Part shown: positions 30,443-54,283 of the stretch, piece after piece
How the letters are laid out: every line of letters begins with the position of its first letter
Numbering within the stretch: position 1 is the first letter of the stretch
Assembly (NCBI GenBank): GCA_963842925.1
Contig: CAWJIL010000003.1
Span: 249,542-313,541 of the forward strand
Origin: an uncultured delta proteobacterium
Lineage (GTDB): Bacteria; Desulfobacterota; Desulfobacteria; Desulfobacterales; B30-G6
Reading direction: 5' to 3'
DNA: 64,000 nt
The notes under the pieces: generated by a model
Told to the model about the DNA's origin: nothing
The model's input: only the letters and a program-made list of their open reading frames with translations
Database searches by the model: none
Made by a program: the position numbers and the translations under genes

Positions 30443-30712
30443 ACGCAACCCATGTGGCCTGTTTCACCTGACGGATTTCCGACCTTGTGCCTATCAGACC
30501 GCCATGGCATTTTGCTCAATAGAAATTTTAAACTTGTTGTTTTTGGTTAACATTGGTTATTATAAAGATTATATTGTTAATTGAAAATAATATTATTGAC
30601 CAAAAATAACTTTAAATATAAATGCTGCCTGTGTTGACCCTAAGTGCTCACCAGGCGCTGCAAACGAACCATGGCTGCACAAATCTGTTTTTATGGAAAG
30701 GATCCGCCACCG

Positions 30713-31618
30713 ATGAAAGACCTGATGACCACCAAGCAAGTCTCTGCCTTCCTCAACATCAACGAGAAGATGGTGTATACCCTCATATCGGAAAAAGGTT
30801 TGCCGGCAACCAAAGTGACAGGCAAATGGCTGTTTCCGAGGCACCTCGTGGAACAGTGGATTGAAGCCAACACAAAAAATTATCCGGAAACAGGAAATCG
30901 GATGCCGCCATACCAGGGTTTGCTCATCATCGCCGGCAGCAATGATCTGCTCCTGGACAAAACCATATCCCTGTTCAACACCCGCTACCCGGATCACCTG
31001 GCTGTTTTCGGAAACCTGGGCAGCATGGGCGGGTTAAGGGCACTCAAAAGGGATATGTGCCACATCGCGTCGAGCCATCTTCTTCAAGACAATGAAAACG
31101 AATACAATTTTTCCTTTGCCTCTGAAGAACTCCGTAAAATGCCGGCTGTTGTCAATTTTTGCAAGCGCGAACAGGGAATCCTTCTGCAGAAAGATAACCC
31201 CAGGCGCATAACCAGCGTAGCCGACCTCGGGAAAATAGGTCTTCGGGTTGTCAATCGTGATCTTGGCACAGGTACCCGCCTCCTTTTTGACAAGGAGTTG
31301 AAAACTGCCGGCCTCACGGGTGATAAAATTGACGGTTACCATCATATCGTAAACCGGCACATGGATATCGGTCTTGAGATATTGTCAGGAAATGCCGATG
31401 CCGGCCCTGGAATCCGGCCGGTTGCGTCGCTTCTGGGTCTTGATTTCATGCCCCTGCGTTGGGAACGATACGATCTGCTCATATCCCGGGACCGCTTTTT
31501 TGAACCGGGGGTACAGTATTTCCAGGCACTCCTGCATGAAGACGCCTTCCTCAAGATTTCAAAAAATCTTGAAGGTTACGATATCAGCGAACGGGGGAAA
31601 ATGCGATTCTCCCAATAA
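30713..31618 (+). CDS. TunR-like regulator: excisionase/MerR-type HTH fused to a periplasmic-binding-protein-like oxyanion-binding domain
   Basis: N-terminal TTKQVSAFLNINEKMVYTLISEKGLPATKVTGKWLF HTH and a PBP-like C-terminus. It sits directly upstream of tupABC. The start is uncertain (30644, 30713 or 30725). Confidence 0.75.
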   Translation: MKDLMTTKQVSAFLNINEKMVYTLISEKGLPATKVTGKWLFPRHLVEQWIEANTKNYPETGNRMPPYQGLLIIAGSNDLLLDKTISLFNTRYPDHLAVFGNLGSMGGLRALKRDMCHIASSHLLQDNENEYNFSFASEELRKMPAVVNFCKREQGILLQKDNPRRITSVADLGKIGLRVVNRDLGTGTRLLFDKELKTAGLTGDKIDGYHHIVNRHMDIGLEILSGNADAGPGIRPVASLLGLDFMPLRWERYDLLISRDRFFEPGVQYFQALLHEDAFLKISKNLEGYDISERGKMRFSQ

Positions 31619-31726
31619 ATTTGTTCACAAATTTACCTGAAACGACCTTGTCACTTTTTTCAAATTATATAGGCGCTTTTATTTAAAGACTAAGATCAAT
31701 TGAGTTCAAACGAAAAGGAGAGTTTT

Positions 31727-32554
31727 ATGAAAAAGGTAATTGTAGCTGGGTTCATCGCTTGTTTGTTGATGGGAATGTTCAGCGGTGTTTCATTGGGAGC
31801 GGAGAAAGTACTGATGATGGCCACCACCACGAGTACGGACAACACCGGCTTGCTCGACTATCTGGCGCCGGCCTTTACCAAGACCACGGGCATCGATTTG
31901 CGCTGGACCGCAGTGGGAACCGGCAAGGCTTTGAAGATGGGCGAAAACTGCGATGTGGATGTTCTGCTGGTTCACGCACCCGCGGCTGAAAAGAAATTTG
32001 TCGATGCCGGCTTCGGCACCAAGCGTCGAGAGCTCATGTACAACGATTTTGTTATCATCGGACCTGCGCCCGACCCTGCCGGAATCAAAGGGCTGCCCAT
32101 CGGCAAAGCCATGACGGGCATCCAAAAGTCAAAAGCGTTATTTGTCAGCAGAGGGGACAATTCCGGCACCAACAAAAAAGAAATTCTTCTCTGGAAAAAT
32201 GCCGGCATGGCGGTTCCGGATAAAGATCCCTGGTACATCCAGGCCGGCCAGGGAATGCTGGCGACCATTCAAATTGCCGAACAGCGCAACGGCTATACTA
32301 TGACAGACAGAGGCACCTATATCAAATACAGCCACAACAGTGGCGGCAAGCCTGCACTGAAGGTCATTGTGGAGGGCGATGCTATCCTCCTCAACCAGTA
32401 CAGCGCCATTGCCATCAACACCGGCAACTGTCCTGAAGCAAAGTTTGAACTGGCCATGACATTCAGCGACTGGATGGCTAGCTCCGAAGCGCAGCAGATG
32501 ATCAAGGATTTCAGGCTTCTGGGACAACAGTTGTTTACGCCGAATGCAAAATAG
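31727..32554 (+). CDS. tupA: Tungstate ABC transporter substrate-binding protein
   Basis: A signal peptide followed by MATTTSTDNTGLLDYL, the TupA-type anion-binding signature. aaggagag RBS. Confidence 0.85.
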   Translation: MKKVIVAGFIACLLMGMFSGVSLGAEKVLMMATTTSTDNTGLLDYLAPAFTKTTGIDLRWTAVGTGKALKMGENCDVDVLLVHAPAAEKKFVDAGFGTKRRELMYNDFVIIGPAPDPAGIKGLPIGKAMTGIQKSKALFVSRGDNSGTNKKEILLWKNAGMAVPDKDPWYIQAGQGMLATIQIAEQRNGYTMTDRGTYIKYSHNSGGKPALKVIVEGDAILLNQYSAIAINTGNCPEAKFELAMTFSDWMASSEAQQMIKDFRLLGQQLFTPNAK

Positions 32555-32555
32555 A

Positions 32556-32867
32556 GGGTCCGAGGGTCCGAGGGGGATACAAGGGTTGGAGGGTGGCTGA
32601 TGGCTAAACGCAAACAGCAGCGTCCCAGCTTCCAAACATCCTAGCTTCCCAGCATAAAAGGGTCCGAGGGTCCGAGGGGGATACAAGGGTTGGAGGGTGG
32701 CTGATGGCTAAACGCAAACAGCAGCGTCCCAGCTTCCAAGCATCCTAGCTTCCCAGCATAAAAGGGTCCGAGGGTCCGAGGGGGATACAAGGGTTGGAGG
32801 GTAGCTAACAGCTAAAAGCGGACAGCTACATCACAGCTTCTAAGCATCATAACCTCCCAGCTTATAA
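32556..32867. repeat. Three tandem copies of a 104-bp unit between tupA and tupB
   Basis: Unit starts are at 32556, 32660 and 32764. Copies 1 and 2 differ at 1 position, and copy 3 diverges in its second half. The unit is built from the gggtccgagggtccgagggggatacaagggttggagggtggctga and gcgtcccagcttccaa.catcctagcttcccagc modules. Confidence 0.9.
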
Positions 32868-33061
32868 GGATCCGAAGGTTCAAGGTGGTGGGTTCATTGC
32901 GTTTGTTGAGTTTCTTGTGTTCATTGGGTTGATGAAACGAAAACGAACTAAAGGCTCTATACCGATGGCCACAAGCAACCCAATGAACCCAAAAAGCACA
33001 ATGAACCCAATAACCCAAAAGCGGCGAAGCCGCATTTAATAAATTCGTGGAACGAATTTAT

Positions 33062-33748
33062 ATGGATTACATCTTCACAGGGTTTATTCAGGCATTTCAA
33101 CTCCTGTTCAACGGGGATGAGCAGACCTATTCCGCCATTTTCGTGACGGTCCGGGTGACAAGCTATTCCATGGCAGTCAGTCTGTTGATGGGCATTCCCT
33201 TAGGATTTATGCTCGGCCACTTCGAATTTAAAGGCAAACGACCATTACGTCTTCTGGTGGACACTGCCCTGGCGCTGCCTACGGTCTTTATCGGACTCGT
33301 GGTCTATGCGTTCCTTTCCAACCGGGGGCCCCTGGGACACATGGGCCTCTTGTTTACACTGCCTGGCATCGCCATCGGCCAGACAATTCTGGCACTGCCC
33401 ATTGTTATCGCCTTGACGGCAGCAGCCGTCGAAGATATGGACCGCCACCTGAGGATAACCCTCATATCACTGGGTGCCGACCGGAGGCAGCTTGTTCTCA
33501 GTAGCCTCTGGGAGGTTCGCTTCAGCATTACAGCAGCTGCATTAACCGCCTTCGGCAGGGTCATGACGGAAGTGGGCATATCCATGATGGTGGGTGGCAA
33601 TATCAAATGGCACACCCGGACCATAACGACGGCCATTGCCCTGGAAACCAACAAGGGACTCTTTGGCATGGGGATTGCTCTTGGCCTGGTCCTCTTGATG
33701 ATCGCCTTTGCGGTGAATTTGTCAGTTGCCTTGGTGAATAAACGATAA
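33062..33748 (+). CDS. tupB: Tungstate ABC transporter permease
   Basis: Five or six TM segments and an ABC permease EAA-like loop (SLGADRRQL). Confidence 0.85.
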   Translation: MDYIFTGFIQAFQLLFNGDEQTYSAIFVTVRVTSYSMAVSLLMGIPLGFMLGHFEFKGKRPLRLLVDTALALPTVFIGLVVYAFLSNRGPLGHMGLLFTLPGIAIGQTILALPIVIALTAAAVEDMDRHLRITLISLGADRRQLVLSSLWEVRFSITAAALTAFGRVMTEVGISMMVGGNIKWHTRTITTAIALETNKGLFGMGIALGLVLLMIAFAVNLSVALVNKR

Positions 33749-33816
33749 GCTGTAAGCTATATGCTTTAAGCAGTAAGCTGTGAGCCGCTTATTGCTTACG
33801 GCTTACTGCTTATCGC
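33744..33816. repeat. REP-like aagc/gctta module between tupB and tupC
   Basis: aagcagtaagc (33768-33778) pairs with gcttactgctt (33802-33812). An outer cgataagc/gcttatcg pair is also present. Confidence 0.65.
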
Positions 33817-33843
33817 TAAAAAAATCTAAAATTGAGTTAAATA

Positions 33844-34848
33844 GTGCGACCTCTTTACCAAATACATAAGCTCCAGCATCATTACAATGGCCATCCGGCC
33901 CTGGACATCGACAGTTTTTCGATCCAACCGGGCACCATCACCGGTATCATCGGCCCCAATGGCAGTGGTAAAAGCACTTTGCTTAAAATGCTGGCTTTCA
34001 TCGATAAGCCCGGGAAAGGTAAAATTCTCTTTAAAGGCAAATCTGCCGAGCCTTTTGCCGAGAATGTCAGATTCCAGGTCACGCTTCTGAGCCAGGAGCC
34101 CTATCTCATGAAACGGTCGGTCTTCAAAAACATATCATACGGGCTTGAACTGCGCAGGGATATCCATGACCTTCCAAACCGTGTGCATGATGCCTTGTCT
34201 CTGGTGGGCTTACCCGGAAATGATTTTTTGCATCGGAAATGGTATGAGCTTTCCGGCGGCGAAGCACAACGTGTAGCCCTGGCCGCACGCCTGATTCTAA
34301 AACCGGAAGTGCTTTTGCTGGACGAACCCACAGCCAGTATCGATGCCGCCAGCGCCCAGGTAATCAAAGATACCGTTCTTCTGGCCCAAAACAAGTGGGG
34401 AACAACACTGGTAATTGCCAGCCATGACTGGGAATGGCTGTATGATATCTGTGAACATGTGGCACATTTGTTCAGGGGTCGTTTTTTTGGTACCGGCCGC
34501 CAGAATTTTATTTTCGGCCCATGGTCAGAACCAGCGCCCGGCAAATGGGTTAAAAAACTCCAAGATGGTCAATCTCTTGAGGTGCCATGTCCCCCCTCAA
34601 AAGATGCCATCGCCATCATCAACCCGGAAAACATGCGACTATCCACAGACAAAAAAGCCTGTACGATCCAAGGAACAGTCACACGGCTGGTTCTGGAAAA
34701 ACATACCCGGGAAATCATCATCATTGTTCAGGCTGCAAATCAAGCCATTACCGCCAGGTTGTCACCGGAAAACACGCACAGACACACCCCCTACCCCGGT
34801 CAAAAGATCCGGCTTTCCTATTTACCGGAAGATATTACCTGGTATTGA
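33844..34848 (+). CDS. tupC: Tungstate ABC transporter ATP-binding protein with C-terminal TOBE-like extension
   Basis: Walker A GPNGSGKST, signature LSGGEAQR and Walker B LLLDEPTA. GTG start. Confidence 0.85.
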   Translation: MRPLYQIHKLQHHYNGHPALDIDSFSIQPGTITGIIGPNGSGKSTLLKMLAFIDKPGKGKILFKGKSAEPFAENVRFQVTLLSQEPYLMKRSVFKNISYGLELRRDIHDLPNRVHDALSLVGLPGNDFLHRKWYELSGGEAQRVALAARLILKPEVLLLDEPTASIDAASAQVIKDTVLLAQNKWGTTLVIASHDWEWLYDICEHVAHLFRGRFFGTGRQNFIFGPWSEPAPGKWVKKLQDGQSLEVPCPPSKDAIAIINPENMRLSTDKKACTIQGTVTRLVLEKHTREIIIIVQAANQAITARLSPENTHRHTPYPGQKIRLSYLPEDITWY

Positions 34849-35081: not shown

Positions 35082-35456
35082 ATGTCAGGAATAAATATGA
35101 CTGATAAAGAAAATCGCTCTCTCAGCATGGATCAATTGGTGCAGGTGTTAGATAAAACTCCTGCCGGTATAACTGTAATAGATAATGAAGGCCGTATTCT
35201 TTACTATAATGAATATTGTGCGAAATTTGTAGACAGAAAACCTGAATATATTGGGAAAAATATAAGTTTCTGTCATCAAAAACCTGAAAGCATGGTGAAA
35301 ATAAGAAAAATCTTATCTGAGCTGAATGAAGACAAAAAGAAAGAATTTTATTATGAGGCGGAGCGAGGCGAGAACAAATTAGGAGTAACTGTTTCGCCGT
35401 TTATTGCTGGTGGAAAACAAATAGGATTCATCCAGTGTTTTTCAATAATCCGGTGA
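35082..35456 (+). CDS. Stand-alone PAS-domain protein (124 aa)
   Basis: PAS-like pattern (LDKTPAGITVIDNEGRILYYN ... ISFCHQ). No output domain. Confidence 0.6.
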   Translation: MSGINMTDKENRSLSMDQLVQVLDKTPAGITVIDNEGRILYYNEYCAKFVDRKPEYIGKNISFCHQKPESMVKIRKILSELNEDKKKEFYYEAERGENKLGVTVSPFIAGGKQIGFIQCFSIIR

Positions 35457-36051
35457 TGCCTGGTACCTTTCCTATAGGTAGATGTTGGGGAGGCGAACGA
35501 GCCCGAAGGGTGTAGCTCGCGGAGCCTCCGCAACTCTATCGATAGGGGATTTCAAGTCAAAATTCTCCAACGTATCAACAGGTAGGGCGAACCTGTGATA
35601 ACATTCTGGAGATGTAGATGGGCCATATTTTTTAGTGTTGTGTTTTCGTGTTATCAATCTATTGCCGACAGAATCAAAATTGGTAATCACCACAAATGAT
35701 TATCAAAACAAACCTTCGCGTTTTGACCTCAGCCGAAAATTAAAGATTACATCAAGGTTGACGATCCACACAAACAAATGACTTTGTAACACATTATAAT
35801 AGTAGCGTAAATTCATTAGGTTGACATAATCCGAGGGGGATCTATATGTCACTGATTGAGCGAATATACCGTGATTTGATTTGTAAATCCAAAGCCTCAA
35901 ACACCCATAGACCTTCCCTTATCCCTGTGGCGTGAAAGAGGCTCCTGGTAAACATTATAAGAGAAATCTCCTGCTCGCTCATAGTGGAGAGCCTATTCAG
36001 GCATCGTTTCAAAAGAATCAATTCGTGCTCAAAAATCTAAAGGATAATACA

Positions 36052-36924
36052 ATGAATTATGAAGTGGTTTTAACCTGTGCTGTGACCGGTGGAAGCGACA
36101 TAATAGACAAACACCCGGGGCTGCCGTCAAGCCCGGCTGAAATTGCCGCGGCAGCAGTAGAAGCTGCAAAAACAGGTGCTGCAGTTGCTCATATCCATGT
36201 CAGAGAGCCGGAGACCGGCGCCCCGAGCAGGGATTTGGAACTGTACAAAGAAACGGCAAAATTAATCAGGGAAAGTGATGTTGATGTGATTCTAAATATC
36301 ACCACCGGTATGGGCGGGGACCTGGTGCCAAGCGAGGAAAACCCGGCTGTGGGGGGCCCGGGAACCGACATGATTTCAGCGGCTGAACGCGTGGCCCACA
36401 TTGAAAAGATAAAACCAGAAATCTGTTCTTTGGACTGTGGCTCATTCAATTATGCCGCCACCGCATACGTGGCAACCATGGAAATGCTTCGGGAAAGCGC
36501 CGTAAGAATCCGGCGCGCGGGTGTTAAGCCGGAGTTGGAGGTCTTCGAGCTGGGGCATATCTGGCAGGCAAAACAGTTGATGGCTGAAAATATTGTTGAT
36601 AAAGATGCCGTCTTTCAACTGTGCATGGGAATTCCCTATGGTGCCGAAGGGACAACTGCCAATATGGTCGCCATGCATCAAGCGCTGCCGCCGGGCGTAG
36701 TCTGGGGAGCCTTCGGGATCGGCAAACAGGAGATGCCCATGGTAGCCCAATCGGTCATCATGGGGGGTAACGCCAGGGTCGGGTTAGAGGATAACATCTA
36801 CCTTGATAAAGGTGTGCTTGCCGACAATGCTGATTTGGTTAACAGAGCCAGGGAAATCGTCGAACGGCTGGGTGCCCGGCTGTTAAACGTCGATCAGGCC
36901 CGTGAGAAGCTCAAGCTTACTTAG
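36052..36924 (+). CDS. Beta-keto acid cleavage enzyme (BKACE / DUF849, 3-keto-5-aminohexanoate cleavage enzyme family)
   Basis: LTCAVTGG, HIHVR (Zn ligands) and a GLEDN glutamate motif. The ATG at 36052 is preferred over the upstream GTG at 35932. Confidence 0.88.
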   Translation: MNYEVVLTCAVTGGSDIIDKHPGLPSSPAEIAAAAVEAAKTGAAVAHIHVREPETGAPSRDLELYKETAKLIRESDVDVILNITTGMGGDLVPSEENPAVGGPGTDMISAAERVAHIEKIKPEICSLDCGSFNYAATAYVATMEMLRESAVRIRRAGVKPELEVFELGHIWQAKQLMAENIVDKDAVFQLCMGIPYGAEGTTANMVAMHQALPPGVVWGAFGIGKQEMPMVAQSVIMGGNARVGLEDNIYLDKGVLADNADLVNRAREIVERLGARLLNVDQAREKLKLT

Positions 36925-36954
36925 TGTCCATTCATAATTGAAAATTGAGGTAAC

Positions 36955-37986
36955 ATGAGAATTGCATTGCTTGGCGCGGGTTCCATAGGAACCATAATGG
37001 GTGCGCTATTATGCCAAAACGGACAAGATGTCGTGCTCGTGGACAATTTTACAGAGCATGTGACGGTACTGAATCAGTGCGGGGCGACAATCAAGGGCAA
37101 GATGGACTGCACGATACCGGTTCAGGCAATATCGCCGGAAGAAATGCAAGGCTGTTACGATTTGATCATATCGTTGGCCAAGCAGACAACCCTGCGCTTA
37201 TCCCTGAAAAACGCCTTGCCGCATATGCATGCTGATACCATTGTCCTGACGCTTCAAAATGGGATACCCGAAGATATTTCCAGAGAGTTTGTCCGTGAAG
37301 ACAGGATTATGGGCGGTGGGGTGGAGTTTGGTGCGACATGGCTCGAACCCGGCGTATCGGAATTAACCACAGATCCACAAACATTGGGAATCACCTTCGG
37401 TCCCTTGAACGGCCGCATCACAGAAGATACCAAAAGAGTTCAACGCGCCTTTTCAGGTATGCACCATGCCCATGTGGTGGATAACATTCTTGGTCTCAGG
37501 TATTCGAAGCTGACAGACAATTCAACCTTCAGCGCCATGTCCACGGCCCTGGGGTGCTGCTGGGGCGAAATATTGGACAGCTATGCGGCCATGACCTGCA
37601 TCGCCCATCTGGGGCGGGAAGCTGCACTGATTATTGAAAAGACTGGCATTCGGCCTAAAAAAATATTCGGTTTTCAGCCGCTGCTTAAACATCTCGGATT
37701 TTCATCTCAAAATGAGATGGACAACGTCATTTACAACTACTGGGCTCCGCTCTATACTCCTTTTAGGAGATGCAAAGCCAGTATGCTGCAGGACATAGAA
37801 AAGGGAAGACTGTGCGAGGTTGATTATATCAACGGAAAGTTTGTGACTTTGGGGAAACAATATGGGGTGGCTACGCCCTTCATGAAATCTGCTGTTCGCA
37901 TCATAACCATGCTCCAAAATAAGGAATTGTCACTCTCCAACGCCTGGGACAATCTAAACGCATTTCCAATGCCTGTTTGGGCATGA
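36955..37986 (+). CDS. 2-dehydropantoate 2-reductase (ApbA/PanE) family oxidoreductase
   Basis: MRIALLGAGSIGT Rossmann start and a KPR-like C-terminal domain. gagg RBS. Confidence 0.78.
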   Translation: MRIALLGAGSIGTIMGALLCQNGQDVVLVDNFTEHVTVLNQCGATIKGKMDCTIPVQAISPEEMQGCYDLIISLAKQTTLRLSLKNALPHMHADTIVLTLQNGIPEDISREFVREDRIMGGGVEFGATWLEPGVSELTTDPQTLGITFGPLNGRITEDTKRVQRAFSGMHHAHVVDNILGLRYSKLTDNSTFSAMSTALGCCWGEILDSYAAMTCIAHLGREAALIIEKTGIRPKKIFGFQPLLKHLGFSSQNEMDNVIYNYWAPLYTPFRRCKASMLQDIEKGRLCEVDYINGKFVTLGKQYGVATPFMKSAVRIITMLQNKELSLSNAWDNLNAFPMPVWA

Positions 37987-38252
37987 ATACAACGTCCGCT
38001 TTTACAGTATTCATCTTGCCCCACTCATAGGGCAGTATGGGGGCCGGCTCGGACTATGTTCGAGTATTGGGTGAAAATGACGAAGTGGCAATTTCTCCAT
38101 GTACAAGACGACTAGTTTGTCATGTGGAATCAATATTTTTCATTATTTGTCTGGCGAGATACACCCATGGCTTTAGCCATTGAAGAGGTGCTCAGATCAA
38201 AAGCCCTCAATGACAATCGGACATTTCAACTGGCAATAAGCGATAACTTTTG

Positions 38253-38280
38253 ATAATAAAATCGAAAACGATTTTATTAT
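38253..38280. repeat. Perfect 12-bp-stem A+T-rich hairpin abutting the RBS of the selenoprotein gene
   Basis: ataataaaatcg-aaaa-cgattttattat. It shares the AATAAAATCG..CGATTTTATT core with 8954-8990. Confidence 0.75.
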
Positions 38281-38292
38281 TGGGAGGTAAAA

Positions 38293-39174
38293 ATGCCCGT
38301 ATCAGCCAAAAAAGTAAATGGATTCTATTTCATGCCGCCATCACTCAGCGCCTGGATCGGGCAAACCATACCCGACAAGGAATTCGATGGTCAAATCCCC
38401 TGGACACCTCTGAAAAAACCGGTTTCTGAAACCGTTTTTTCTTTGATGACCTCCGCCGGCATCAACATGAAAACTGATCCGGATTTTGACATGCAACGGG
38501 AAAAACAGAAACCCACGTGGGGAGATCCCTCGTACAGAAAAATACCGAAATCAGCTAAGGAAACCGACATCCATATCAATCATCTGCATGTCAACACGGA
38601 TTATATACAACAGGATATGAATGTGACCCTGCCTTTGGAACGCTTTCGGGAATTCGAAAGCGATGGTGTTATCGGCGCGTTGGCCCCCACCACCTATTCC
38701 TACTATGGATATCAAACAGATCCAACCGTTCTGCTGGAAGAAACCATGCCCAAGGTTGTGGCGGCCATGAAATCTGAAGGGGTGGAAGCCGTTTTTCTCA
38801 CCCCGGCCTGACCCTTGTGCTGCCGGTCCGTGGGACTGGTTGCACGGTTTCTTGAAGAAAATGGACTCTCCACCATCCTTCTCACCATGACACCCGAATT
38901 CAACAGGGAAATCGGGATACCCCGTATTGCGGCCATCGAATACCCTTATGGGCGGGTCGTGGGTGAAGTGAACGATGCAGAGGGTCAACGGCAAGTGCTC
39001 ATGGAAGCACTGTCGGTTCTGGATGCCGCAGAAAAACCGGGTGAGGTGGTTCATCTGCCATACACCTGGCATGAAGACCCTAGGGATACAAAATGGCATC
39101 CGCCCGAGGCTTCCCCCATCATCAAAATGTATTTGGAAGCCATAAAGAAAGCCGGATCCGAAGCACGTAAGTAA
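38293..39174 (+). CDS. PrdB/GrdB-family (Stickland reductase selenoprotein B-like) selenoprotein with selenocysteine at UGA 38809-38811
   Basis: ORFs 38293-38811 and 38815-39174 are in the same frame and are separated only by TGA plus one codon. The read-through gives ..EAVFLTPA-U-PLCCRSVGLVARFLEENGLSTILL.., which resembles the ..LLTAG-U-GTCHRS..AGIPTI.. Sec region of PrdB as I recall it. The second ORF has no ATG or RBS of its own. A hairpin follows the UGA. Confidence 0.8.
38817..38845 (+). promoter_or_regulatory. Candidate bacterial SECIS hairpin
   Basis: gtgctgccggtcc-gtg-ggactggttgcac forms a 13-position stem (10 Watson-Crick pairs, 2 G-U pairs, 1 mismatch) starting 6 nt after the UGA. 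Confidence 0.5.
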
Positions 39175-39253: not shown

Positions 39254-40264
39254 ATGAAAAGATCAATCCGTTTTATGTTTGTGCTAATTGCAGGATTACT
39301 GCTCTTCTTTATCGCAGGTCCTGCAACGGGAAAAACTGTTGAGTTGAAATTGGCTCACTTTATGCCGGCCATGCATGTTCAGCATGTAAAAGCTTTTGAG
39401 CCTTTTGCAAAGCAGGTTGCAAAAGAATCTGGTGGGGAAGTTACTATAAAAATCTACCCTGGCGGAGCACTTGGCAACCCAAAAACCATGGTAGATGCGA
39501 TTCGTATGGGTATTACAGATATTGGTTTTGTTCTCCCCAGCTATGTACCTGGACGGTTCGAGAGAAGCTCTGTGTTTGAACTGCCATTTATTTTTAACAA
39601 TGCAGAACATGTAACAAGAGTAGTTTATGATATCTATGATGAGTACCTGGCTGAAGACTATAAAGAATTTAAGACGCTCTGGTTTCTTTCCGCCCCTCTG
39701 AGTCAGGTTCATACTACAAAAGCACCTCTTCTGACACTTGCCGATTTTAAAGGTGTGAAAATTAGAGGTGGTAATGCCCTTGAATCAAAAGCGATAAAAC
39801 TTCTCGGTGGCAATCCGGTTGGCCTACCAATTTCAGAACTTTCAATCGCAATGCAAAAAGGTGTTGTTGATGGTTGTTTTACTCCCTATGCGGCGCTTAG
39901 AAGTTATAAACTGATTGATGTTTCTAAATATATTACTGAATTTAATTTTTCTGGTGCTTTAATGTGTGTATTAATGAACAAAGCCAAATGGAATAGCCTT
40001 TCAGATAATGGTAAAAATGCAATTAATGTTGTTGCGACAAAACAATTTGGCATGAGGGCGGCCATGGCTTTTGATGAAGAAGATTCGGAAAACAAGGCCA
40101 TGGCTGCAGAAAAAGGGATGAAATCATATATGCTTTCAGATGTTGACAGAGCCGCTATAAAAGAAAAATTCAGTATATTCTATTCGGATTGGGTAAAAAA
40201 GAACTCATCAAAGTTTGATGCCCAAAAACTTCTTGACGCCGTTTTTGAGTCCGCTGCAAAATAA
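39254..40264 (+). CDS. dctP: TRAP transporter substrate-binding protein (DctP family)
   Basis: A signal peptide followed by ELKLAHFMP, a DctP-type fold pattern. ggagaaggg RBS. Confidence 0.9.
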   Translation: MKRSIRFMFVLIAGLLLFFIAGPATGKTVELKLAHFMPAMHVQHVKAFEPFAKQVAKESGGEVTIKIYPGGALGNPKTMVDAIRMGITDIGFVLPSYVPGRFERSSVFELPFIFNNAEHVTRVVYDIYDEYLAEDYKEFKTLWFLSAPLSQVHTTKAPLLTLADFKGVKIRGGNALESKAIKLLGGNPVGLPISELSIAMQKGVVDGCFTPYAALRSYKLIDVSKYITEFNFSGALMCVLMNKAKWNSLSDNGKNAINVVATKQFGMRAAMAFDEEDSENKAMAAEKGMKSYMLSDVDRAAIKEKFSIFYSDWVKKNSSKFDAQKLLDAVFESAAK

Positions 40265-40372
40265 TAGCAATGTCTCTATTCGCATTAGAAAAAAATCGCT
40301 CCGTTCAAGAGAATATAAAATAGTTTTCGTTTGGAGCTGCCTTGTATTCTCCTCTATTGTAAGGACAAATAA

Positions 40373-40873
40373 ATGGTACAACAAAAGAATCCAATCTGGG
40401 TTGAAAAAGGACTTTATCCCTTGGTCAAAATCCTTGACTATTTATCATGGATAACACTTTTTTCAATGATGGCAATAACTATATTAGATGTTTTTCTAAG
40501 AAAATTATTTAATACATCTATTCTCGGGACAGTTGAGCTTACCGAATTTATGATGGTTATTGTAGTCTTTAGCTCCCTTGCTCAGTGTGAAGTTGACAAT
40601 GGCCACATCAGAGTTGAACTGATCATAGACAAATTCGGACCCAAAGTTAGAACCTGTGCGAATATTTTCACTCAAACGTTATGTACTGCTCTTTTTGCTA
40701 TGATGTCCACATCCATTTATCATCATGCAATAAACATGAAGTCCTCCGGTGAAGTGTCAATGGATCTTGGGCTTCCAATGTATCCATTTGTCTACATTGC
40801 ATTTTTCGGATGCATTGTAATGACTGTAGTTCTGTTTTTTAAAACAATCCTAATAATTTCAAAGGCAGTATAA
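40373..40873 (+). CDS. dctQ: TRAP transporter small permease (DctQ family)
   Basis: 166 aa with 4 TM segments, positioned between the dctP and dctM genes. Confidence 0.85.
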   Translation: MVQQKNPIWVEKGLYPLVKILDYLSWITLFSMMAITILDVFLRKLFNTSILGTVELTEFMMVIVVFSSLAQCEVDNGHIRVELIIDKFGPKVRTCANIFTQTLCTALFAMMSTSIYHHAINMKSSGEVSMDLGLPMYPFVYIAFFGCIVMTVVLFFKTILIISKAV

Positions 40874-40875
40874 TC

Positions 40876-42180
40876 ATGAGCCCCTTAGTTATAGGCGTGT
40901 TAGGGATAGGAGCTCTGTTTATTCTTCTGGCTTTAAGAATGCAAATTGGCTTTGCAATGGCTATTATTGGATTTGCCGGGTTTGCAATCTTAAATAGTTT
41001 CAGCTCAAGCCTTGCCATCCTTGGCTTTGAGCCTTATCAAACAGCATCTTCATACACCCTAAGTGTCATTCCATTATTTATGCTTATGGGACAATTTGCC
41101 AACCATTCCAATTTGGGCACGGAAATATATGAAACTGTCAACAAATGGATTGGGTTTTTGCCAGGGGGGCTTGCCATGGCAACGGTCGGGGCATGTGCCA
41201 TGTTTGCGGCGATCTCCGGTTCATCTCTTGCCACTGCTGCAATGTTCGGAACAATCGCACTTCCTGAAATGCAAAAACTGGACTATTCTGAAAAACTTGC
41301 AACAGGATGTATTGCTGCCGGTGGGACATTGGGTATTTTAATCCCCCCAAGTTCCGTACTGATTCTCTACGGTATTCTTACTGAACAAAGTATAGGAAGA
41401 CTCTTTATTGCAGGCATAATACCTGGAATATTACTAAGCTTGATGTTTATAGGTACAATATATGTCCTGACCAAAATAAATCCCAGCATAGGAAAACCTG
41501 GTCCCGCATATGCATTTAAACAAAAAGTTGCTTCCTTAAAAAACACATGGGCAATAATTACTCTATTTGGTCTTGTTATTGGTGGACTGTATGCTGGTTG
41601 GTTTACACCAACAGCTGCTGCCGGAGTTGGCGCATTTGGTGCATTTTTAATAACCCTGCTCAAACGCAGGCTGACATGGAATACCTTAATAATCTCATTA
41701 AAAGAAGCAGCCTCGTCTACGGCAATGATTTTCGGAATTTTAATAGGAGCAATGATTTTTCAGTATTTTATGACATTGAGCCAGATACCGACAACTTTAG
41801 CATCACTGGTGGTTGACTCCGGGATGGGAAAGTATCTTGTTATTAGTTGCATAATAATAGGATTCATCATTTTGGGTTGTTTTATGGAAGGTCTTTCCAT
41901 AATGGTCCTGGCAGTGCCAATTATTTTCCCTATTATCATAAATATGGGTTTTGATCCTATCTGGTTTGGAATTATCATTACGTTGACCATGGAAATGAGC
42001 CTTATCACACCACCTGTTGGCGTGAATGTTTTTGTTTTAAGCGGTGTTGCCAAGGATATACCCATGTCGACAATGTTTAAAGGAATTTTACCTTTCTGGA
42101 TTGCCATGCTGATTTGTATTATTCTTCTTGCTTGCTTTCCTGAAATAGTAACATATTTACCGAATAGAATGATGGGATAG
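40876..42180 (+). CDS. dctM: TRAP transporter large permease (DctM family)
   Basis: A 434-aa polytopic protein with DctM-typical motifs (AISGSSLATAA, LIPPS). Confidence 0.92.
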   Translation: MSPLVIGVLGIGALFILLALRMQIGFAMAIIGFAGFAILNSFSSSLAILGFEPYQTASSYTLSVIPLFMLMGQFANHSNLGTEIYETVNKWIGFLPGGLAMATVGACAMFAAISGSSLATAAMFGTIALPEMQKLDYSEKLATGCIAAGGTLGILIPPSSVLILYGILTEQSIGRLFIAGIIPGILLSLMFIGTIYVLTKINPSIGKPGPAYAFKQKVASLKNTWAIITLFGLVIGGLYAGWFTPTAAAGVGAFGAFLITLLKRRLTWNTLIISLKEAASSTAMIFGILIGAMIFQYFMTLSQIPTTLASLVVDSGMGKYLVISCIIIGFIILGCFMEGLSIMVLAVPIIFPIIINMGFDPIWFGIIITLTMEMSLITPPVGVNVFVLSGVAKDIPMSTMFKGILPFWIAMLICIILLACFPEIVTYLPNRMMG

Positions 42181-42186
42181 TCTTAA

Positions 42187-43584
42187 ATGGATGTTGTAAC
42201 TAAATTATTACTTATTGCTGATATTTTTTTATTTTCCGCTTTCTTATATTTTGCATTTGAGTCTTACCGTGAGCAAGAAGCACGCGCCACGAAAATCGGT
42301 CTCGTGGGTGCAGCAATCGCCATAATCATCGGAATTTTTATATTTATCCCAGACCTAAAAAATGCAGTCGTATACCTTTTCTCCACAGGATGCATACTTT
42401 CCCTAAGCCTGCTGATTCCAGCCAACCCGAATAAAAAGGCCCTGAAAGGAACAAAGGGTTATCTTGTGGGCCAGGCACAGCGATTTGACGAAAGGAATTC
42501 TGTTTTTGCAAGGTATAGGAGTTTGACCCCGGGAACCGAGCGCTATGATTATTTTTATAGGAAGATGCATCCTGAAAAAGAAGAACACGATGCAAAAAGA
42601 CGAAAAACAGGTTTTATTGGTACCAATGGAAGTATCGACAATGGATATCAACCCAATGTTGCCATGATGCATGCTTCTTTTTCAATACCGCCCTATCTGG
42701 GCCATTATGCATTTAATGATCCTGAATCTGATGTTCCTGCTGCAAACTTAAGCCCTGAAAAAGCGACCCTGATTGTTAAAAACCTTGCCAGACATATTGG
42801 CGCTGATCTGGTAGGAATCACAAAGGTTGATACGGATCTTCTTTATTCACATAGAGGGGAAATCCATTATGACAACGAAAAAGACTGGGGCAAAGAAATA
42901 AAAGACCTACCGCCGTATGCTGTGGTTCTTATCACGCAAATGAGCCACGGTCATGTCATATCAGCTCCGCATACGCCAACGGTGGCCGAGAGTGCCCACC
43001 TTTATGCAAAAGGCGCCTATATGGCGACCTTGCTTGCCAGATGGTTTTCATACATGGGGTATAAAGGTATTGCTGAACACACACGTAACTATAATCTTGT
43101 GTTGCCACCTCTTGCAGTTGATGCAGGGCTCGGAGAAGTTGGTCGTCAAGGCTACCTGATTGCGCCCAAGTTTGGAGCAAGGGTCCGTATTTTTGCAGTA
43201 TTAACCGATATGCCTCTTTTAACTGACAAGCCTATTTCCCTCGGTGTTGAGGAATTCTGTCAGGCTTGTAAAAAATGCGCTGATGCCTGCCCTTCAAAAT
43301 CAATACCCCAGGGCGCTAAAACTGTCTACAACGGCTTTGAAAAATGGAAGCTTGATGAAGATTCCTGCTTTGCGTACTGGAGTAAAGTGGGTACTGATTG
43401 CTCAATCTGTATGGCTATCTGCCCTTTTAGCCGACCAGATACGTTTTTACATAAAATTGTAAAGCTGCTTGTTGCCAAATCAAGGATTGCACAAATAACA
43501 TTCCCCTATATTGACAATTTCTTGTATGGTAAACATTGGCGGTCCAAAACGGTTCTACCATGGTTAAATTACAACGATAAATAA
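42187..43584 (+). CDS. Reductive-dehalogenase-like (RdhA/QueG superfamily) Fe-S protein with N-terminal transmembrane anchor
   Basis: It has about three N-terminal hydrophobic helices and no RRxFLK twin-arginine motif. The C-terminal region carries CQACKKCADACP and C..W....DCSICMAICP (2x[4Fe-4S]). It starts 6 nt after dctM. Confidence 0.72.
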   Translation: MDVVTKLLLIADIFLFSAFLYFAFESYREQEARATKIGLVGAAIAIIIGIFIFIPDLKNAVVYLFSTGCILSLSLLIPANPNKKALKGTKGYLVGQAQRFDERNSVFARYRSLTPGTERYDYFYRKMHPEKEEHDAKRRKTGFIGTNGSIDNGYQPNVAMMHASFSIPPYLGHYAFNDPESDVPAANLSPEKATLIVKNLARHIGADLVGITKVDTDLLYSHRGEIHYDNEKDWGKEIKDLPPYAVVLITQMSHGHVISAPHTPTVAESAHLYAKGAYMATLLARWFSYMGYKGIAEHTRNYNLVLPPLAVDAGLGEVGRQGYLIAPKFGARVRIFAVLTDMPLLTDKPISLGVEEFCQACKKCADACPSKSIPQGAKTVYNGFEKWKLDEDSCFAYWSKVGTDCSICMAICPFSRPDTFLHKIVKLLVAKSRIAQITFPYIDNFLYGKHWRSKTVLPWLNYNDK

Positions 43585-47069: not shown

Positions 47070-48461
47070 TTAAAATCCCTCAAACGGTTCCCGTTTGACG
47101 AATCGTCCCCTGCCGATTTGGCCGACAAATGCAAGCTGCTCACCATTCCATTCTGCAACCCGTTTGCCTCTGGAATAGACAGCATAGGGCATACCGGTCA
47201 TTTTCATGCCCTCATAAGGTGTGTAATCGACATTCATGTGAAGTTTATCCTGGGTAATTGTAAATTCCTGCTCCGGATCGAATACAACAATATCGGCATC
47301 CTTGCCCACGATGATTTCACCCTTGTCTTTCAATCCAAACATCCGGGCAGTTCCCGTAGAAAGAACATCCACCATTCGTTCGAGACTGATACGACCTTTG
47401 ACAACACCTTCCGTATGCATCAGCATGAGAAGTGTCTCGATGCCTGGCGCACCGTTGGGAATTTTTTTGTAGTCATCTTTTCCAAACATGTCCTTTTTAC
47501 CATGGAAGTCAAACGGACAATGATCCGTTGCGACCACCTGGACATCCCCACCCTTCAAGCCCCCCCACAAGGCTTCACTGCTCTCTTCTGTTCTCAGCGG
47601 TGGTGACATGACGTACTTGGCACCGTTAAAATCCGCCTCCTTATAGCGATCTTCATTTAGAAGTAAATACTGGGGACAGGTTTCTGCAAACACGTCAATA
47701 CCGTGGTCTCGGGCTTCTTTTACCTTGAAAAGCCCTTCTTTGGAAGAAAGATGGACAATATAGATCCTTGAACCGGTCAACTCCACCATTTTGGCGGCCC
47801 TGGAAACAGCCTCTTCTTCGGCAATATTGGGCCGGCTGACAGCATGGTAATAGGGTGCCAGCTTTCCTTCCCTTTCTAGCACTTCGTTCATGTGCTGAAT
47901 GATATAGACATTTTCCGCGTGGACCTGTACCAACCCTCCATATTTTTTTGTCTCCTCCAGGAGTTTGATCATGGTGGCATCATCCACTCTGAAATCATAT
48001 ACCATAAATATTTTAAAACTGGGGGTACCATAGTCCAGGATTGCCTTTTTGACCTCCTCGATGACCTCCGGTCTCGGATCCATGATAGCTGGATGCAACG
48101 AGAAGTCTACCGCCGCTTTTCCTTCTGCCCATGATTTTTTTCGCTCCAGAGCCTCCAACAGGGATTCACCTTTTTGCTGGAGATCAAAGTCAACCACCGT
48201 GGTGACACCACCGCACGCGGCTGAAATGGTGCCGGTTTCATAGTCGTCCTGGGCACTTGTTCCCATAAACGGCATGGAGATATGGGTGTGGGGATCGATG
48301 GCGCCGGGTAGCACATATTTCCCGGCTGCATCGATGGCTTCATCTGCCTCGACGTCAAGATTCTTTCCAATGGATTTGATCTTATCATCTTCCGCATACA
48401 CGTCCGCGACATAACGCCCGGTCGAGGTAACAATCGTACCACCTTTAATAAGTACACTCAT
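47070..48461 (-). CDS. Dihydropyrimidinase / D-hydantoinase
   Basis: LIKGGTIV.., GAIDPHTH metal-binding motif and cyclic-amidohydrolase length. aggaggg RBS upstream of the ATG at 48461. Confidence 0.92.
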   Translation of the reverse strand: MSVLIKGGTIVTSTGRYVADVYAEDDKIKSIGKNLDVEADEAIDAAGKYVLPGAIDPHTHISMPFMGTSAQDDYETGTISAACGGVTTVVDFDLQQKGESLLEALERKKSWAEGKAAVDFSLHPAIMDPRPEVIEEVKKAILDYGTPSFKIFMVYDFRVDDATMIKLLEETKKYGGLVQVHAENVYIIQHMNEVLEREGKLAPYYHAVSRPNIAEEEAVSRAAKMVELTGSRIYIVHLSSKEGLFKVKEARDHGIDVFAETCPQYLLLNEDRYKEADFNGAKYVMSPPLRTEESSEALWGGLKGGDVQVVATDHCPFDFHGKKDMFGKDDYKKIPNGAPGIETLLMLMHTEGVVKGRISLERMVDVLSTGTARMFGLKDKGEIIVGKDADIVVFDPEQEFTITQDKLHMNVDYTPYEGMKMTGMPYAVYSRGKRVAEWNGEQLAFVGQIGRGRFVKREPFEGF

Positions 48462-49758
48462 TGGGTCCCTCCTTGGTAAATGCTTCAAGCTTGATCTCAT
48501 TTTTCAGGTTTTTATCCATTACCTGGGTTTCATCACGGCTCCATGTTGCGGGCATCTCCTTAAATGAGATCAACCCGGGCACGGGGCAAACAAAGCTGCA
48601 GAGCATGCAGCTCAAACACTTCTCTTCCATCAGTTTGGGTCTGCGCTCTACTGCTTCCCACTCGATGGCCTGGCCAGCGGCATCGGTACATACGGTGTAG
48701 CACTGACCACACCCCACACATTTATCCAGATCATACTGAGCAATACCCTGGCGGGCCAGATCAAAATGATCGGTGGTTTTCAGATTTGGCAGTGCCTTGC
48801 CCACCAGGTCGCCGACCTTTGTTACATTGCGTTGCGTCATAAAGTCCGACAACCCTTCGATCATGTCTTCAACGATTTTGTAGCCATAGTGCATGATGCC
48901 GGTGGTGATTTGTATCGTCGATGCACCCAGCAGGATGTATTCCAGGGCATCAACCCAGGTCTCGATGCCCCCGATGCCCGAGAGTGGCAGCGCGAGTCCT
49001 TCACACCTGGCCATGTCGGCAATGAAATGCAGCCCGATGGGTTTGATAGCCGGCCCGGATGTCCCGCTGACAGCGCCGATGCCGAAAATATTGGGTTTTG
49101 GAACCAGATCTTCCAGACCGATCTCTGATATGCCGCTCACCGTGTTAATGGCGGAGATGGCATCAGCACCGCCATTTTTAGCATATATAGCCGGTTCCGT
49201 CATATCCGTAATATTGGGAGTCATCTTGGCAATCACCGGGATAGAAACCGTATCCTTGACCGTGTTAGTGAATTTTTCAATCAGGTCAAAAGCCTGGCCC
49301 ACATGATGTCCCGACCCCTCGATGCACATATGGGGGCAGGAAAAATTGAGTTCCAGCATGTCTGCACCATTGTCCTCGGACACCTTGGCCAGGTAGGCCC
49401 ACTCTTCATTCGAAAACCCCATGATACTGGATATCAAAACGTGTGCCGGATAATGTTTTTTCAGATAGAGAAAATCGGCCAGGTTGTCCTTCAACGGCCG
49501 ATCGGAAATCTGTTCCACGTTCTGAACCCCCACAACCCGTTTGGCACCATAGTGATAAGCGTTCATCCGTGGGGATGGATGAATGATTTCCAGCCGATCT
49601 GAGTTCAAAGTTTTGAACACCACGCCGGACCAACCAGCCTCAAAAGACCGGGCAACCATCTCGGCACTGTTGGATACCGGAGACGAAGAGAGCAGAAAAG
49701 GGTTCTGAAAGGTCTTCCCGCAGAATTCAATGGATAGATCGATGGCTTGACTGGACAC
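48445..49758 (-). CDS. preA: Dihydropyrimidine dehydrogenase subunit PreA-like (DHOD-fold plus 2x[4Fe-4S])
   Basis: DHOD-like TIM barrel (NFSCPH) and a C-terminal CVGCGQCYTVC / CLSCMLCSFVCP ferredoxin domain. Confidence 0.9.
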   Translation of the reverse strand: MSSQAIDLSIEFCGKTFQNPFLLSSSPVSNSAEMVARSFEAGWSGVVFKTLNSDRLEIIHPSPRMNAYHYGAKRVVGVQNVEQISDRPLKDNLADFLYLKKHYPAHVLISSIMGFSNEEWAYLAKVSEDNGADMLELNFSCPHMCIEGSGHHVGQAFDLIEKFTNTVKDTVSIPVIAKMTPNITDMTEPAIYAKNGGADAISAINTVSGISEIGLEDLVPKPNIFGIGAVSGTSGPAIKPIGLHFIADMARCEGLALPLSGIGGIETWVDALEYILLGASTIQITTGIMHYGYKIVEDMIEGLSDFMTQRNVTKVGDLVGKALPNLKTTDHFDLARQGIAQYDLDKCVGCGQCYTVCTDAAGQAIEWEAVERRPKLMEEKCLSCMLCSFVCPVPGLISFKEMPATWSRDETQVMDKNLKNEIKLEAFTKEGPNECTY

Positions 49759-49850
49759 GATATTACCTCCTGTTACTTTGTAAATAGACCTGGCAGACAG
49801 GTTGGAATGAAGCGAAATGACGGTTTGCTTGGAAAAAGGTCTATTATTTT

Positions 49851-49931
49851 ATCACGAAAACACGAAAGAATAAAAACACGGACTAGAGCACAGAAATATT
49901 TCGCGCTTTCGTACTTTCGTGTTTTCGTGAT
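49851..49931. repeat. Perfect 18-bp inverted repeat in the preT-preA spacer
   Basis: atcacgaaaacacgaaag (49851-49868) and ctttcgtgttttcgtgat (49914-49931), separated by 45 nt. Confidence 0.85.
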
Positions 49932-49969
49932 GTTTTTTATATTAACCGCAATCACTTATACTTGAAACG

Positions 49970-51301: not shown

Positions 51302-51470
51302 TCAATGGCCTCCTTTTTGAAAAGACTCAGGGCACATCACAATGCCCGACAATAAAAACATATAGAAAATATGCCACATTTTTACAATACAAATCACACC
51401 AAAAACACTTGACGCCGAATCCCTACATAAGATACATGTTGAACCGAAAATAGCTACAATTTAGATACGA

Positions 51471-51518
51471 CCTGAACTGAGCGATTTTTCCCGAAGAAAT
51501 GTGCCAAGATCTTGATGG
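51471..51518. repeat. 48-nt conserved motif, copy 1
   Basis: cctgaactgagcgatttttcccgaagaaatgtgccaagatcttgatgg matches 63565-63612 at 45 of 48 positions. Confidence 0.85.
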
Positions 51519-51650
51519 AGGAGGTTTCGCAAAAACCGCAGGCATACCCGTGGATCTGTCGAGGCTTTTTGCGAACCCTTGATCCGCAAGAGATTGGTGC
51601 AGATCGAGATAAAAAATCATTCAGTTCAGATAATAGAAAAGGGGATCGAC

Positions 51651-52520: not shown

Positions 52521-52527
52521 TACAGAA

Positions 52528-52566
52528 GGATTCAAGAATTCCAGGGTCCGAGGGTCCGAGGGTAGT
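52528..52566. repeat. Short copy of the ggattcaag / gggtccgagggtccgaggg modules
   Basis: ggattcaagaattccagggtccgagggtccgagggtag. Confidence 0.7.
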
Positions 52567-52585
52567 TGATAGTGATCAGCTAAAA

Positions 52586-52608
52586 GCAGTCTAAAAGACT
52601 GTCTTTTT
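52586..52608 (+). terminator. Weak terminator-like hairpin after the amidohydrolase gene
   Basis: gcagtc-taaaa-gactgt followed by cttttt. Confidence 0.35.
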
Positions 52609-52667
52609 GTTCTTAATTATTAACCCGACCCAATTGAATGGGCAAACAGGAAGGAGGGGCAAGTACC

Positions 52668-54221: not shown

Positions 54222-54244
54222 ATTCGCTAAGCGAATTTGTTTTC

Positions 54245-54266
54245 AACGGCCATGCCGTTATTTTTT
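54245..54266 (+). terminator. Rho-independent terminator (first of two)
   Basis: aacggc-cat-gccgtt followed by atttttt. Confidence 0.6.
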
Positions 54267-54283
54267 AAACCATTATACATTAG

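Follow-up and report, generated by a model that had tools for sequence, protein, structure and literature searches.

Introduction

The closest described relatives of the gene considered in this article are PrdB, the selenoprotein of D-proline reductase, and the GrdB-type subunits of glycine, betaine and sarcosine reductases. In PrdB of C. difficile, residue U151 is a selenocysteine (Sec) and is catalytically essential (PMC11229817). Several environmental surveys list a 'proline reductase (PrdB)' family, associated with pfam07355 and a UxxC motif, among the most abundant environmental selenoprotein families, with entries going back to 2005 (PMC1088965, PMC2398784). The counts given there amount to 42 Sec forms and 1 cysteine (Cys) form in the Sargasso Sea (PMC1088965), 235 Sec and 110 Cys forms in the Global Ocean Sampling data (PMC2398784), and five copies (5 Sec, 0 Cys) in the delta-1 symbiont of Olavius (PMC1976440), and the family is also recorded there in Anaeromyxobacter and Geobacter uraniireducens (PMC1794560). 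In this article, a 64,000-nucleotide stretch of DNA from an uncultured delta proteobacterium of the Desulfobacterales (contig CAWJIL010000003.1 of assembly GCA_963842925.1), hereafter referred to as the window, is analyzed with respect to one gene at positions 38293-39174. With a probability of roughly 0.9, this region is a single monocistronic gene for a 293-residue selenoprotein, in which UGA codon 173 is decoded as Sec with the aid of a downstream hairpin, and whose product is a stand-alone paralogue of PrdB.

Decoding of the In-Frame UGA Codon

In frame 1, the region reads as 172 codons up to a TGA at 38809-38811 and another 120 codons from there to a TAA, and a mechanical list of open reading frames (ORFs) breaks it into 38293-38811 and a TTG-started frame at 38815-39174. 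An earlier note, made from the sequence alone, had stated that both halves lie in one frame divided by this TGA, that the downstream TTG has no ribosome-binding site, and that the joined peptide begins FLTPA-U at the junction, and translation of the region bears out each of these statements. The Shine-Dalgarno sequence GGGAGG stands 5 nt ahead of the ATG at 38293, whereas the TTG following the TGA (...CACCCCGGCCTGACCC-TTG) is not preceded by a purine-rich Shine-Dalgarno sequence, and the peptide across the TGA reads FLTPA-U-PLCCRSVGLVARFLEENGLSTILL. The prediction that automated callers would report fragments is likewise borne out by more than 100 protein-database homologues that are called at exactly 172 aa, that is, ending at the Sec codon.

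The strongest evidence for read-through is comparative. A profile scan with one genome per species gave 80 loci with 81 homologous copies, each matching along the whole protein at 41-95% identity and distributed over Desulfobacterota, SAR324, Nitrospinota, Chloroflexota, Myxococcota, Gemmatimonadota and unclassified metagenome-assembled genomes (MAGs). The codon aligned to U173 is TGA in 77 of the 81 copies, TGC in three and TGT in one; thus, neither a pair of independent genes nor a misaligned sense codon, which the earlier note had named as observations that would speak against its proposal, was encountered among these orthologues. Three further Cys loci were found beyond the four genomic loci with TGC or TGT, and 12 of 13 full-length homologues in the protein database carry Cys at this site in the context TP[AG]-C-PLCCR. 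The two halves of the gene are conserved to a similar degree, with a mean amino acid identity to the window protein of 58.3% ahead of the TGA and 60.7% after it, and the fractions of differing bases at codon positions 1, 2 and 3 are 0.34, 0.23 and 0.58 before the TGA and 0.31, 0.21 and 0.58 after it, so that the order position 3 > position 1 > position 2 holds in both halves. Synonymous variation begins with the codons right after the TGA, where Pro is encoded by CCN and Cys by TGC or TGT. TGA also serves as the normal stop of 9 of the 33 Pfam-supported genes in the window, and a global reassignment of UGA is therefore not indicated.

Two loci deserve separate mention. A full-length homologue in locus L084 (2103-2987, protein P0001) has Arg (AGA) at the Sec position within the motif TPT-R-PYCSL, together with a hairpin that carries one mismatch, and represents either a degenerate, noncatalytic paralogue or an assembly error. 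On the chromosome of an unclassified MAG (OZ244653.1, locus L060), tandem PrdB-like copies occur at 9086-9818 and 10001-10816, both with TGA at the Sec codon.

The Hairpin Downstream of the UGA Codon

When 38812-38850 is folded, a stem of 14 bp results that contains a single U.U mismatch, is capped by a GUG triloop and has a free energy of -20.6 kcal/mol, with a z score of -3.62 and equal stability in 1 of 200 dinucleotide shuffles. The earlier note had placed a hairpin at 38817-38845; it is present, and the minimum-energy fold extends it by two pairs to 38815-38847. In a wider frame of 71 nt, the z score is only -0.92, and the comparative evidence consequently outweighs the fold of the single sequence.

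An alignment of the TGA and the following 48 nt from 72 distinct Sec loci was used for this comparison. The RNAalifold consensus contains the 8-bp apical helix, in which compensatory double changes occur in four of the eight pairs, and the first base of the triloop is an invariant G. Across the full 14-pair stem, standard pairs account for 82.6% of the cells, compared with 30-47% in controls with the 3' partners displaced by 1-3 columns, and the covariation score is 0.184 versus 0.05-0.11 in these controls; the observed pairing and covariation scores were matched in 0 of 500 shuffles, a figure uncorrected for phylogeny. The closest relatives share the hairpin fold of the window, and in a distant clade, the helix is kept despite replacement of the peptide PLCCRSVGL by PLCNRSGGL or PLCMRSGGL, with compensation of the outer pairs.

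The helix also follows the presence of the UGA. Within the close clade, all eight apical pairs are formed in 43 of 53 Sec forms (mean -11.6 kcal/mol) versus one of eight non-Sec forms (mean -6.8 kcal/mol), a difference with a Mann-Whitney p of about 1e-4 without phylogenetic correction, and the apical helix is thus weakened in seven of the eight non-Sec homologues. At the third base of a Gly codon, which pairs within the helix, A is present in 49 of 53 Sec forms and is absent from all eight non-Sec forms (Fisher p 1.7e-7, again uncorrected for phylogeny). As far as sequence comparison can establish it, the hairpin is therefore conserved, covarying and dependent on the presence of the UGA.

Bacterial Sec insertion sequence (SECIS) elements, according to criteria of the bSECISearch type, are stem-loops located right after the UGA, with an apical loop approximately 16-37 nt from it and a G in the loop. 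The hairpin examined here has its stem onset 3-5 nt after the UGA and its loop 18 nt downstream, a geometry that fits this description, and the position in which the earlier note saw a bacterial SECIS is thus occupied by a conserved and covarying element.

Protein Family and the Position of Selenocysteine

The assignment to the PrdB/GrdB family, which had been proposed from the peptide motif, is supported by profile searches with the joined protein. The Pfam model GRDB (PF07355) matches residues 34-170 with 39.7 bits against a cutoff of 22, and this profile stops at about residue 172, just before the Sec. Among the NCBIfam models, the best match is PrdB TIGR04483 (156 bits, E 1e-45), which spans the UGA over residues 37-260 and has an equivalog cutoff of 300 bits. 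The GrdB, GrdF and GrdH models, through their positions of about 209-425, align to residues 28-244 of the window protein, including the Sec region, with scores all below the respective cutoffs (37.6/602 bits for TIGR01917, 50.6/800 for NF040794 and 43.5/775 for NF040795), and the broad model TIGR01918 gives 42.2 bits against 65.45.

For direct comparison, genuine prdB genes annotated in RefSeq were taken from plasmid records (loci L081, L082 and L083), and their coding sequences read through a TGA at codon 151. U173 falls into one alignment column with the Sec of two genuine PrdBs and with the Cys of two natural Cys homologues, which is the outcome anticipated in the alignment check laid down beforehand in the earlier note, and C176 of the UxxC motif as well as R178 is invariant across the alignment of the subfamily and genuine PrdB. 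At the level of sequence, the Sec position is thus homologous to the catalytic Sec of PrdB.

The suggestion of a distinct subfamily, with a product intermediate in length between PrdB and GrdB, also stands. The product has 293 aa, the three retrieved genuine PrdBs have 237-241 aa, and the GrdB models have 431-435 positions. Identity to PrdB is approximately 32%, and the subfamily is characterized by an N-terminal insertion (FxFxPPxL), an REKxxPxW insertion before GDP, the lack of the GFMGGGG stretch of PrdB, and a C-terminal tail of about 30 residues containing TKWHPPExSPI, which does not occur in genuine PrdB. The features of the gene are collected in Table 1.

Table 1. Features of the selenoprotein gene and its hairpin, in window coordinates
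Feature	Position	Strand	Basis
Shine-Dalgarno sequence GGGAGG	38282-38287	+	Direct reading of the sequence
Codons 1-172 (reported by gene callers as a 172-aa protein)	38293-38808	+	Pfam GRDB on residues 34-170
UGA codon 173, interpreted as Sec, the U of U-P-L-C	38809-38811	+	TGA conservation, Cys homologues, alignment with PrdB Sec
Codon of Cys176, putative resolving cysteine of UxxC	38818-38820	+	Invariant; synonymous TGC/TGT variation indicates translation
SECIS-type hairpin	38815-38847	+	-20.6 kcal/mol, z -3.62; same fold in closest relatives
Outer stem, U.U mismatch, apical stem and GUG loop	38815-38820/38842-38847 (outer stem); 38821/38841 (mismatch)	+	Parts of the SECIS-type hairpin
SECIS core: 8-bp apical helix 38822-38829/38833-38840 and triloop 38830-38832	38822-38840	+	RNAalifold, pairing controls
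Codons 174-293 and TAA stop (39172-39174), including the subfamily tail ...TKWHPPEASPI...	38812-39174	+	Conservation; tail absent from genuine PrdB

Structure prediction is consistent with this picture. For P0004, a natural Cys homologue that is colinear with the window protein, the AlphaFold2 model (predicted local distance difference test score 86, predicted template modeling score 0.88) places residue 173 in a loop between the strand 166-170 and the helix 174-189, and such a strand-loop-helix position is typical of redox-active CxxC and UxxC centers. A sequence search of the PDB with the family profile gave no match at E <= 1, and a Foldseek search of the PDB with the P0004 model gave nothing significant (best E 8e-3, TM <= 0.36) and no functional lead.

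Gene Neighborhood and Candidate Partners

With the PrdA, PrdH, PrdD, PrdE and proline racemase proteins of genuine prdB loci as queries, tblastn gave no match at E <= 0.01 in the window and 86 related loci (1.28 Mb). In the three positive controls with genuine prdB, by contrast, prdA lies directly upstream of prdB in every case, prdH comes after prdA in L082 and L083, and prdD, prdE and a proline racemase gene are present as well in L083. In the control locus from a plasmid of P. acidaminophilum (NZ_CP007453.1, L081), the PrdA-like coding region directly upstream of prdB (5669-6937) was recognized by tblastn with 47% identity over about 425 aa; it is missing from the PLSDB gene table and apparently corresponds to no more than the C-terminal two-thirds of PrdA, and is probably a pseudogene or an omission from the table. 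Likewise, no grdA, grdE, grdC or grdD was recognized near the gene among the large ORFs of the window or among the top 25 recurrent neighbor families of the homologues. Prd and grd partners are thus absent from the vicinity of the gene.

Upstream of the gene, the window encodes a PAS protein, a BKACE beta-keto-acid cleavage enzyme and an ApbA/PanE-like reductase (35082-37986), and downstream, the TRAP components DctP, DctQ and DctM together with a protein containing DUF456 and two [4Fe-4S] clusters (39254-43584); a CBS protein is also among the neighbors. A conserved operon composed of BKACE, ApbA, the PrdB-like gene and TRAP was considered as a candidate and rejected, as these neighbors are missing from the closest relatives L001-L006 (74-95% identity) and the only upstream stretch common to the window and L001 is the 72 nt at 38222-38293. 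In L001-L006, the gene is bordered directly by a tungstate-type ABC transporter on one side and by CBS/DDAH genes on the other, and the arrangement in the window looks like two insertions or losses around a fixed selenoprotein gene.

In the nearest flanking ORFs of about 60 loci, 81 Pfam families were counted upstream and 78 downstream, none of which is common to more than three loci. Unbiased clustering of flanking ORFs and the Pfam census of neighbors revealed no general partner, only clade-specific synteny (MFS, DUF362, SDR). In L065-L080, from unclassified and Nitrospinota MAGs, two tandem MFS transporter genes on the same strand directly precede the gene, about 1.3 kb and 24-40 nt upstream, which suggests an MFS-selenoprotein operon confined to the Nitrospinota-like clade. 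The Cys-form genes of L039, L041, L044, L048, L087, L088 and L089 are followed on the same strand, 24-210 nt downstream, by a DUF362 gene of about 400 aa; this neighbor accompanies all Cys-form members of one clade and no Sec forms, two inspected DUF362 sequences start with an apparent signal of the twin-arginine translocation type, and the DUF362 protein is a possible clade-specific partner of the Cys forms. The selenoprotein gene itself behaves as a self-contained unit, since no prd or grd partner lies nearby, the neighborhoods are varied, and a relative from Haematobacter with a CxxC motif stands alone.

Two other loci of the window were recorded in the course of this analysis. An ABC transporter at 30644-34848 was read as being of the tungstate/molybdate type; Pfam confirms its regulator with HTH_17 and PBP_like domains, the homologue of its ATPase in L002 matches ABC_tran, and the labels of the binding protein and permease were read from the sequence. 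A gene for a tungsten-type aldehyde:ferredoxin oxidoreductase (16107-18059) is situated about 12 kb away. An apparent cluster for reductive pyrimidine catabolism occupies 47070-58926 and comprises a dihydropyrimidinase-like amidohydrolase, PreA/PreT-like dihydropyrimidine dehydrogenase subunits (the labels for the dihydropyrimidinase and for PreA being read from translations), a CN-hydrolase resembling beta-ureidopropionase, a xanthine/uracil permease, an aldehyde dehydrogenase and a class-III aminotransferase; the dihydropyrimidinase and dihydropyrimidine dehydrogenase genes are syntenic in L001-L005.

Proposed Mechanism and Function

In the mechanism proposed, the hairpin would act as a bacterial SECIS element that recruits SelB-GTP-Sec-tRNA(Sec) to the ribosome while the UGA occupies the A site, whereby UGA173 would be recoded to Sec. 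The resulting protein is interpreted as a paralogue of PrdB and of the GrdB C-terminal domain that stands alone. Its residues U173 and C176, predicted to occupy a loop that connects a beta-strand to the N-terminal end of a helix, would form a selenol/thiol redox pair homologous to U151-x-x-C154 of PrdB. By analogy with PrdB, the selenolate of U173 may serve as the nucleophile that reduces or reductively cleaves the substrate, C176 may resolve the adduct into an Se-S bond, and a cellular dithiol system, e.g., thioredoxin, may re-reduce this bond.

The subfamily is marked by the motif U-P-x-C, the REKxxPxWGDP insertion, the TKWHPPExSPI tail and the absence of a PrdA or GrdE partner at the sampled loci; its carriers are sediment and marine bacteria, and approximately 95% of its members are Sec forms. 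As no pyruvoyl-bearing PrdA or GrdE partner was found and the neighborhoods are unrelated to one another, the protein most likely belongs to neither a D-proline nor a glycine reductase complex, and D-proline activated by the pyruvoyl group of a PrdA is an improbable substrate. It is likely, with less assurance than the selenoprotein assignment itself, that this stand-alone subfamily of about 290 aa represents a functionally distinct selenoenzyme, either self-sufficient or working with a different partner, rather than a proline reductase.

Weighing of Alternative Explanations

The alternative that deserves most attention is that the gene encodes a genuine PrdB of D-proline reductase, or a GrdB-type subunit of glycine, betaine or sarcosine reductase, with PrdA or GrdE encoded elsewhere in the genome. 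Its top NCBIfam match is indeed the PrdB model (E 1e-45), the name 'D-proline reductase (dithiol) PrdB' is attached to many homologues by the Joint Genome Institute (JGI), both the Sec and the UxxC cysteine match their PrdB counterparts in the alignment, and a UxxC 'proline reductase' family in similar organisms appears in the surveys consulted (PMC1088965, PMC2398784, PMC1976440). Yet the score of 156 bits is about half of the 300-bit cutoff, the scores for GrdB, GrdF, GrdH and TIGR01918 are far below theirs, and the low identity of about 32%, the two insertions, the altered GFMGGGG region and the additional 30-aa tail separate the protein from PrdB, just as the absence of the N-terminal domain of about 200 aa separates it from GrdB. 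The partner genes and the racemase are missing from the window and the 86 loci, while prdA abuts prdB in all three controls. In addition, the subfamily is present in SAR324, Nitrospinota, Chloroflexota and other lineages that are not known as Stickland fermenters. Membership in such a reductase complex is accordingly considered improbable.

Less probable still is a pseudogene, or a pair of separately translated genes divided by a real stop. The 172-aa product called in more than 100 homologues, the TTG that lies shortly after the TGA (ORF start 38815), and the fact that no Sec machinery is visible in the window could be cited in its favor. A nonsense mutation, however, would not be retained in the manner seen here: over several phyla and at identities as low as 41%, 77 of 81 copies keep the TGA and the remaining four have Cys codons, and the downstream half equals or exceeds the upstream half in conservation and has a coding pattern of substitution. 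A conserved P-x-C with synonymous variation is encoded by the three codons that separate the TGA from any plausible restart, and the TTG has no ribosome-binding site. The retention of the TGA, the conservation of both halves and the synonymous variation after the TGA therefore exclude, for practical purposes, both a pseudogene and two independent genes. Comparably remote is read-through by a reassigned UGA or by near-cognate suppression, which would insert Trp, Cys or Gly. Such decoding would do without the Sec machinery that was not seen in the 64-kb window, and the Cys homologues indicate that the site tolerates a thiol in some members; nevertheless, TGA terminates 9 of the 33 Pfam-supported genes in the window, a hairpin of SECIS geometry accompanies the TGA and decays where the codon is one for Cys or Arg, and the position is homologous to a proven Sec of PrdB (PMC11229817).

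Several points weigh against the interpretation as a stand-alone, Sec-decoding paralogue of PrdB. No selA, selB, selD or tRNA-Sec gene and no second selenoprotein gene were found within the 64-kb window, and the host is presumed to be Sec-competent from the gene itself and from its lineage, as is SelB-dependent Sec insertion in this organism. Coding constraint accounts for part of the conservation of the hairpin, which overlaps codons of the strongly conserved peptide C-C-R-S-V-G-L-V; the shuffle and Fisher statistics ignore phylogeny; and Rfam offers no SECIS or other relevant family for the hairpin in a gathering-threshold scan of the whole window or in a permissive scan of 38760-38900. Some of the genomes are represented by 20-kb loci only, in which a far-off PrdA- or GrdE-like partner would escape notice. 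No solved structure of a PrdB or GrdB relative was found by sequence or fold search of the PDB, no member of the subfamily appears to have been characterized, and the redox cycle, the reductant and the substrate chemistry are modeled by analogy alone.

With regard to these points, the permissive Rfam scan of 38760-38900 returned a lone chance match to an sRNA (E 9.8); no chance occurrence of tRNA-Sec was seen within 60 related loci; and among 65 same-frame TGA junctions in the window, the ORFs checked with Pfam, a minority of the list, revealed no split selenoprotein and no sel gene. Despite the peptide overlap and the uncorrected statistics, the tests of the hairpin consistently point in one direction, namely toward a SECIS-type element, and the interpretation as a single selenoprotein gene is retained.

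Significance

The practical consequence lies primarily in annotation. This gene and more than 100 homologues are deposited as 172-residue fragments named 'hypothetical' or 'PrdB', and each should be represented as one selenoprotein with Sec173 (293 residues in the present case). Caution is also advisable with the name 'D-proline reductase PrdB' as assigned by pipelines such as that of JGI, and with the corresponding survey label, which imply Stickland-type proline reduction in organisms without PrdA in any sampled locus. If the stand-alone interpretation is correct, an abundant environmental selenoprotein family would be without known function, partner or structural template, much of the 'PrdB' counted in surveys would be an uncharacterized enzyme without a solved fold, and the subfamily would be a reasonable target for biochemical work. 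Current knowledge of Sec decoding is not changed by these results.

Comparison with Known Systems

PrdB of the C. difficile and A. sticklandii type (TIGR04483) resembles the window protein in its homologous fold over residues 37-260, the motif U-x-x-C-x-R-S and many shared invariant residues, and in prdB genes, too, a hairpin covering the next codons starts within about 5-12 nt of the UGA. The sequence and loop of that hairpin differ from those of the window gene, which, unlike prdB, has no adjacent prdA, prdH, prdD, prdE or proline racemase gene and encodes a longer protein (293 versus 237-241 aa). PrdB occurs in Clostridia and Lactobacillales, whereas the window subfamily occurs in Desulfobacterota, SAR324, Nitrospinota and other lineages. 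With GrdB, GrdF and GrdH (PF07355, TIGR01917/01918), the window protein shares a score above the Pfam GRDB threshold and a UxxC motif; it differs in lacking the N-terminal half of about 200 residues of the full GrdB (about 435 aa), and its motif is U-P-L-C-C, compared with the UxxCxxC reported for GrdB (PMC13188914).

A further relative is the Cys-type PF07355 protein WP_035710215.1 of Haematobacter massiliensis, which likewise has about 300 aa, stands alone without prdA and carries C-P-I-C at the homologous site, followed by ...ARHLEENGIATV, but differs in having Cys instead of Sec, in its identity of 29% and in the lack of the WHPPExSPI tail. This stand-alone gene (L090) implies that PrdA-less relatives exist in cultured aerobic Alphaproteobacteria. 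On the plasmid of H. massiliensis, it occupies 4899-5825 and adjoins a large gene of class-III aminotransferase fold and cobalamin biosynthesis genes.

A literature search on PrdB-like and GrdB-like proteins matched only unrelated papers on Synergistota, and in the protein database, two truncated members from NCBI and nr already bear the name 'glycine/betaine/sarcosine/D-proline family reductase selenoprotein B'. The survey descriptions, in the parts available, give the PrdB name and a D-proline reductase function and describe no PrdA-less or stand-alone form. The survey family as described there agrees with the window subfamily in its pfam07355 assignment, its UxxC motif, the predominance of Sec (77:4 in the present data) and its marine and deltaproteobacterial hosts, and the two are very probably the same, as matched by description and not by alignment. 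The selenoprotein family is thus not new, having been counted in surveys for approximately twenty years, and the window gene is a further member of it.

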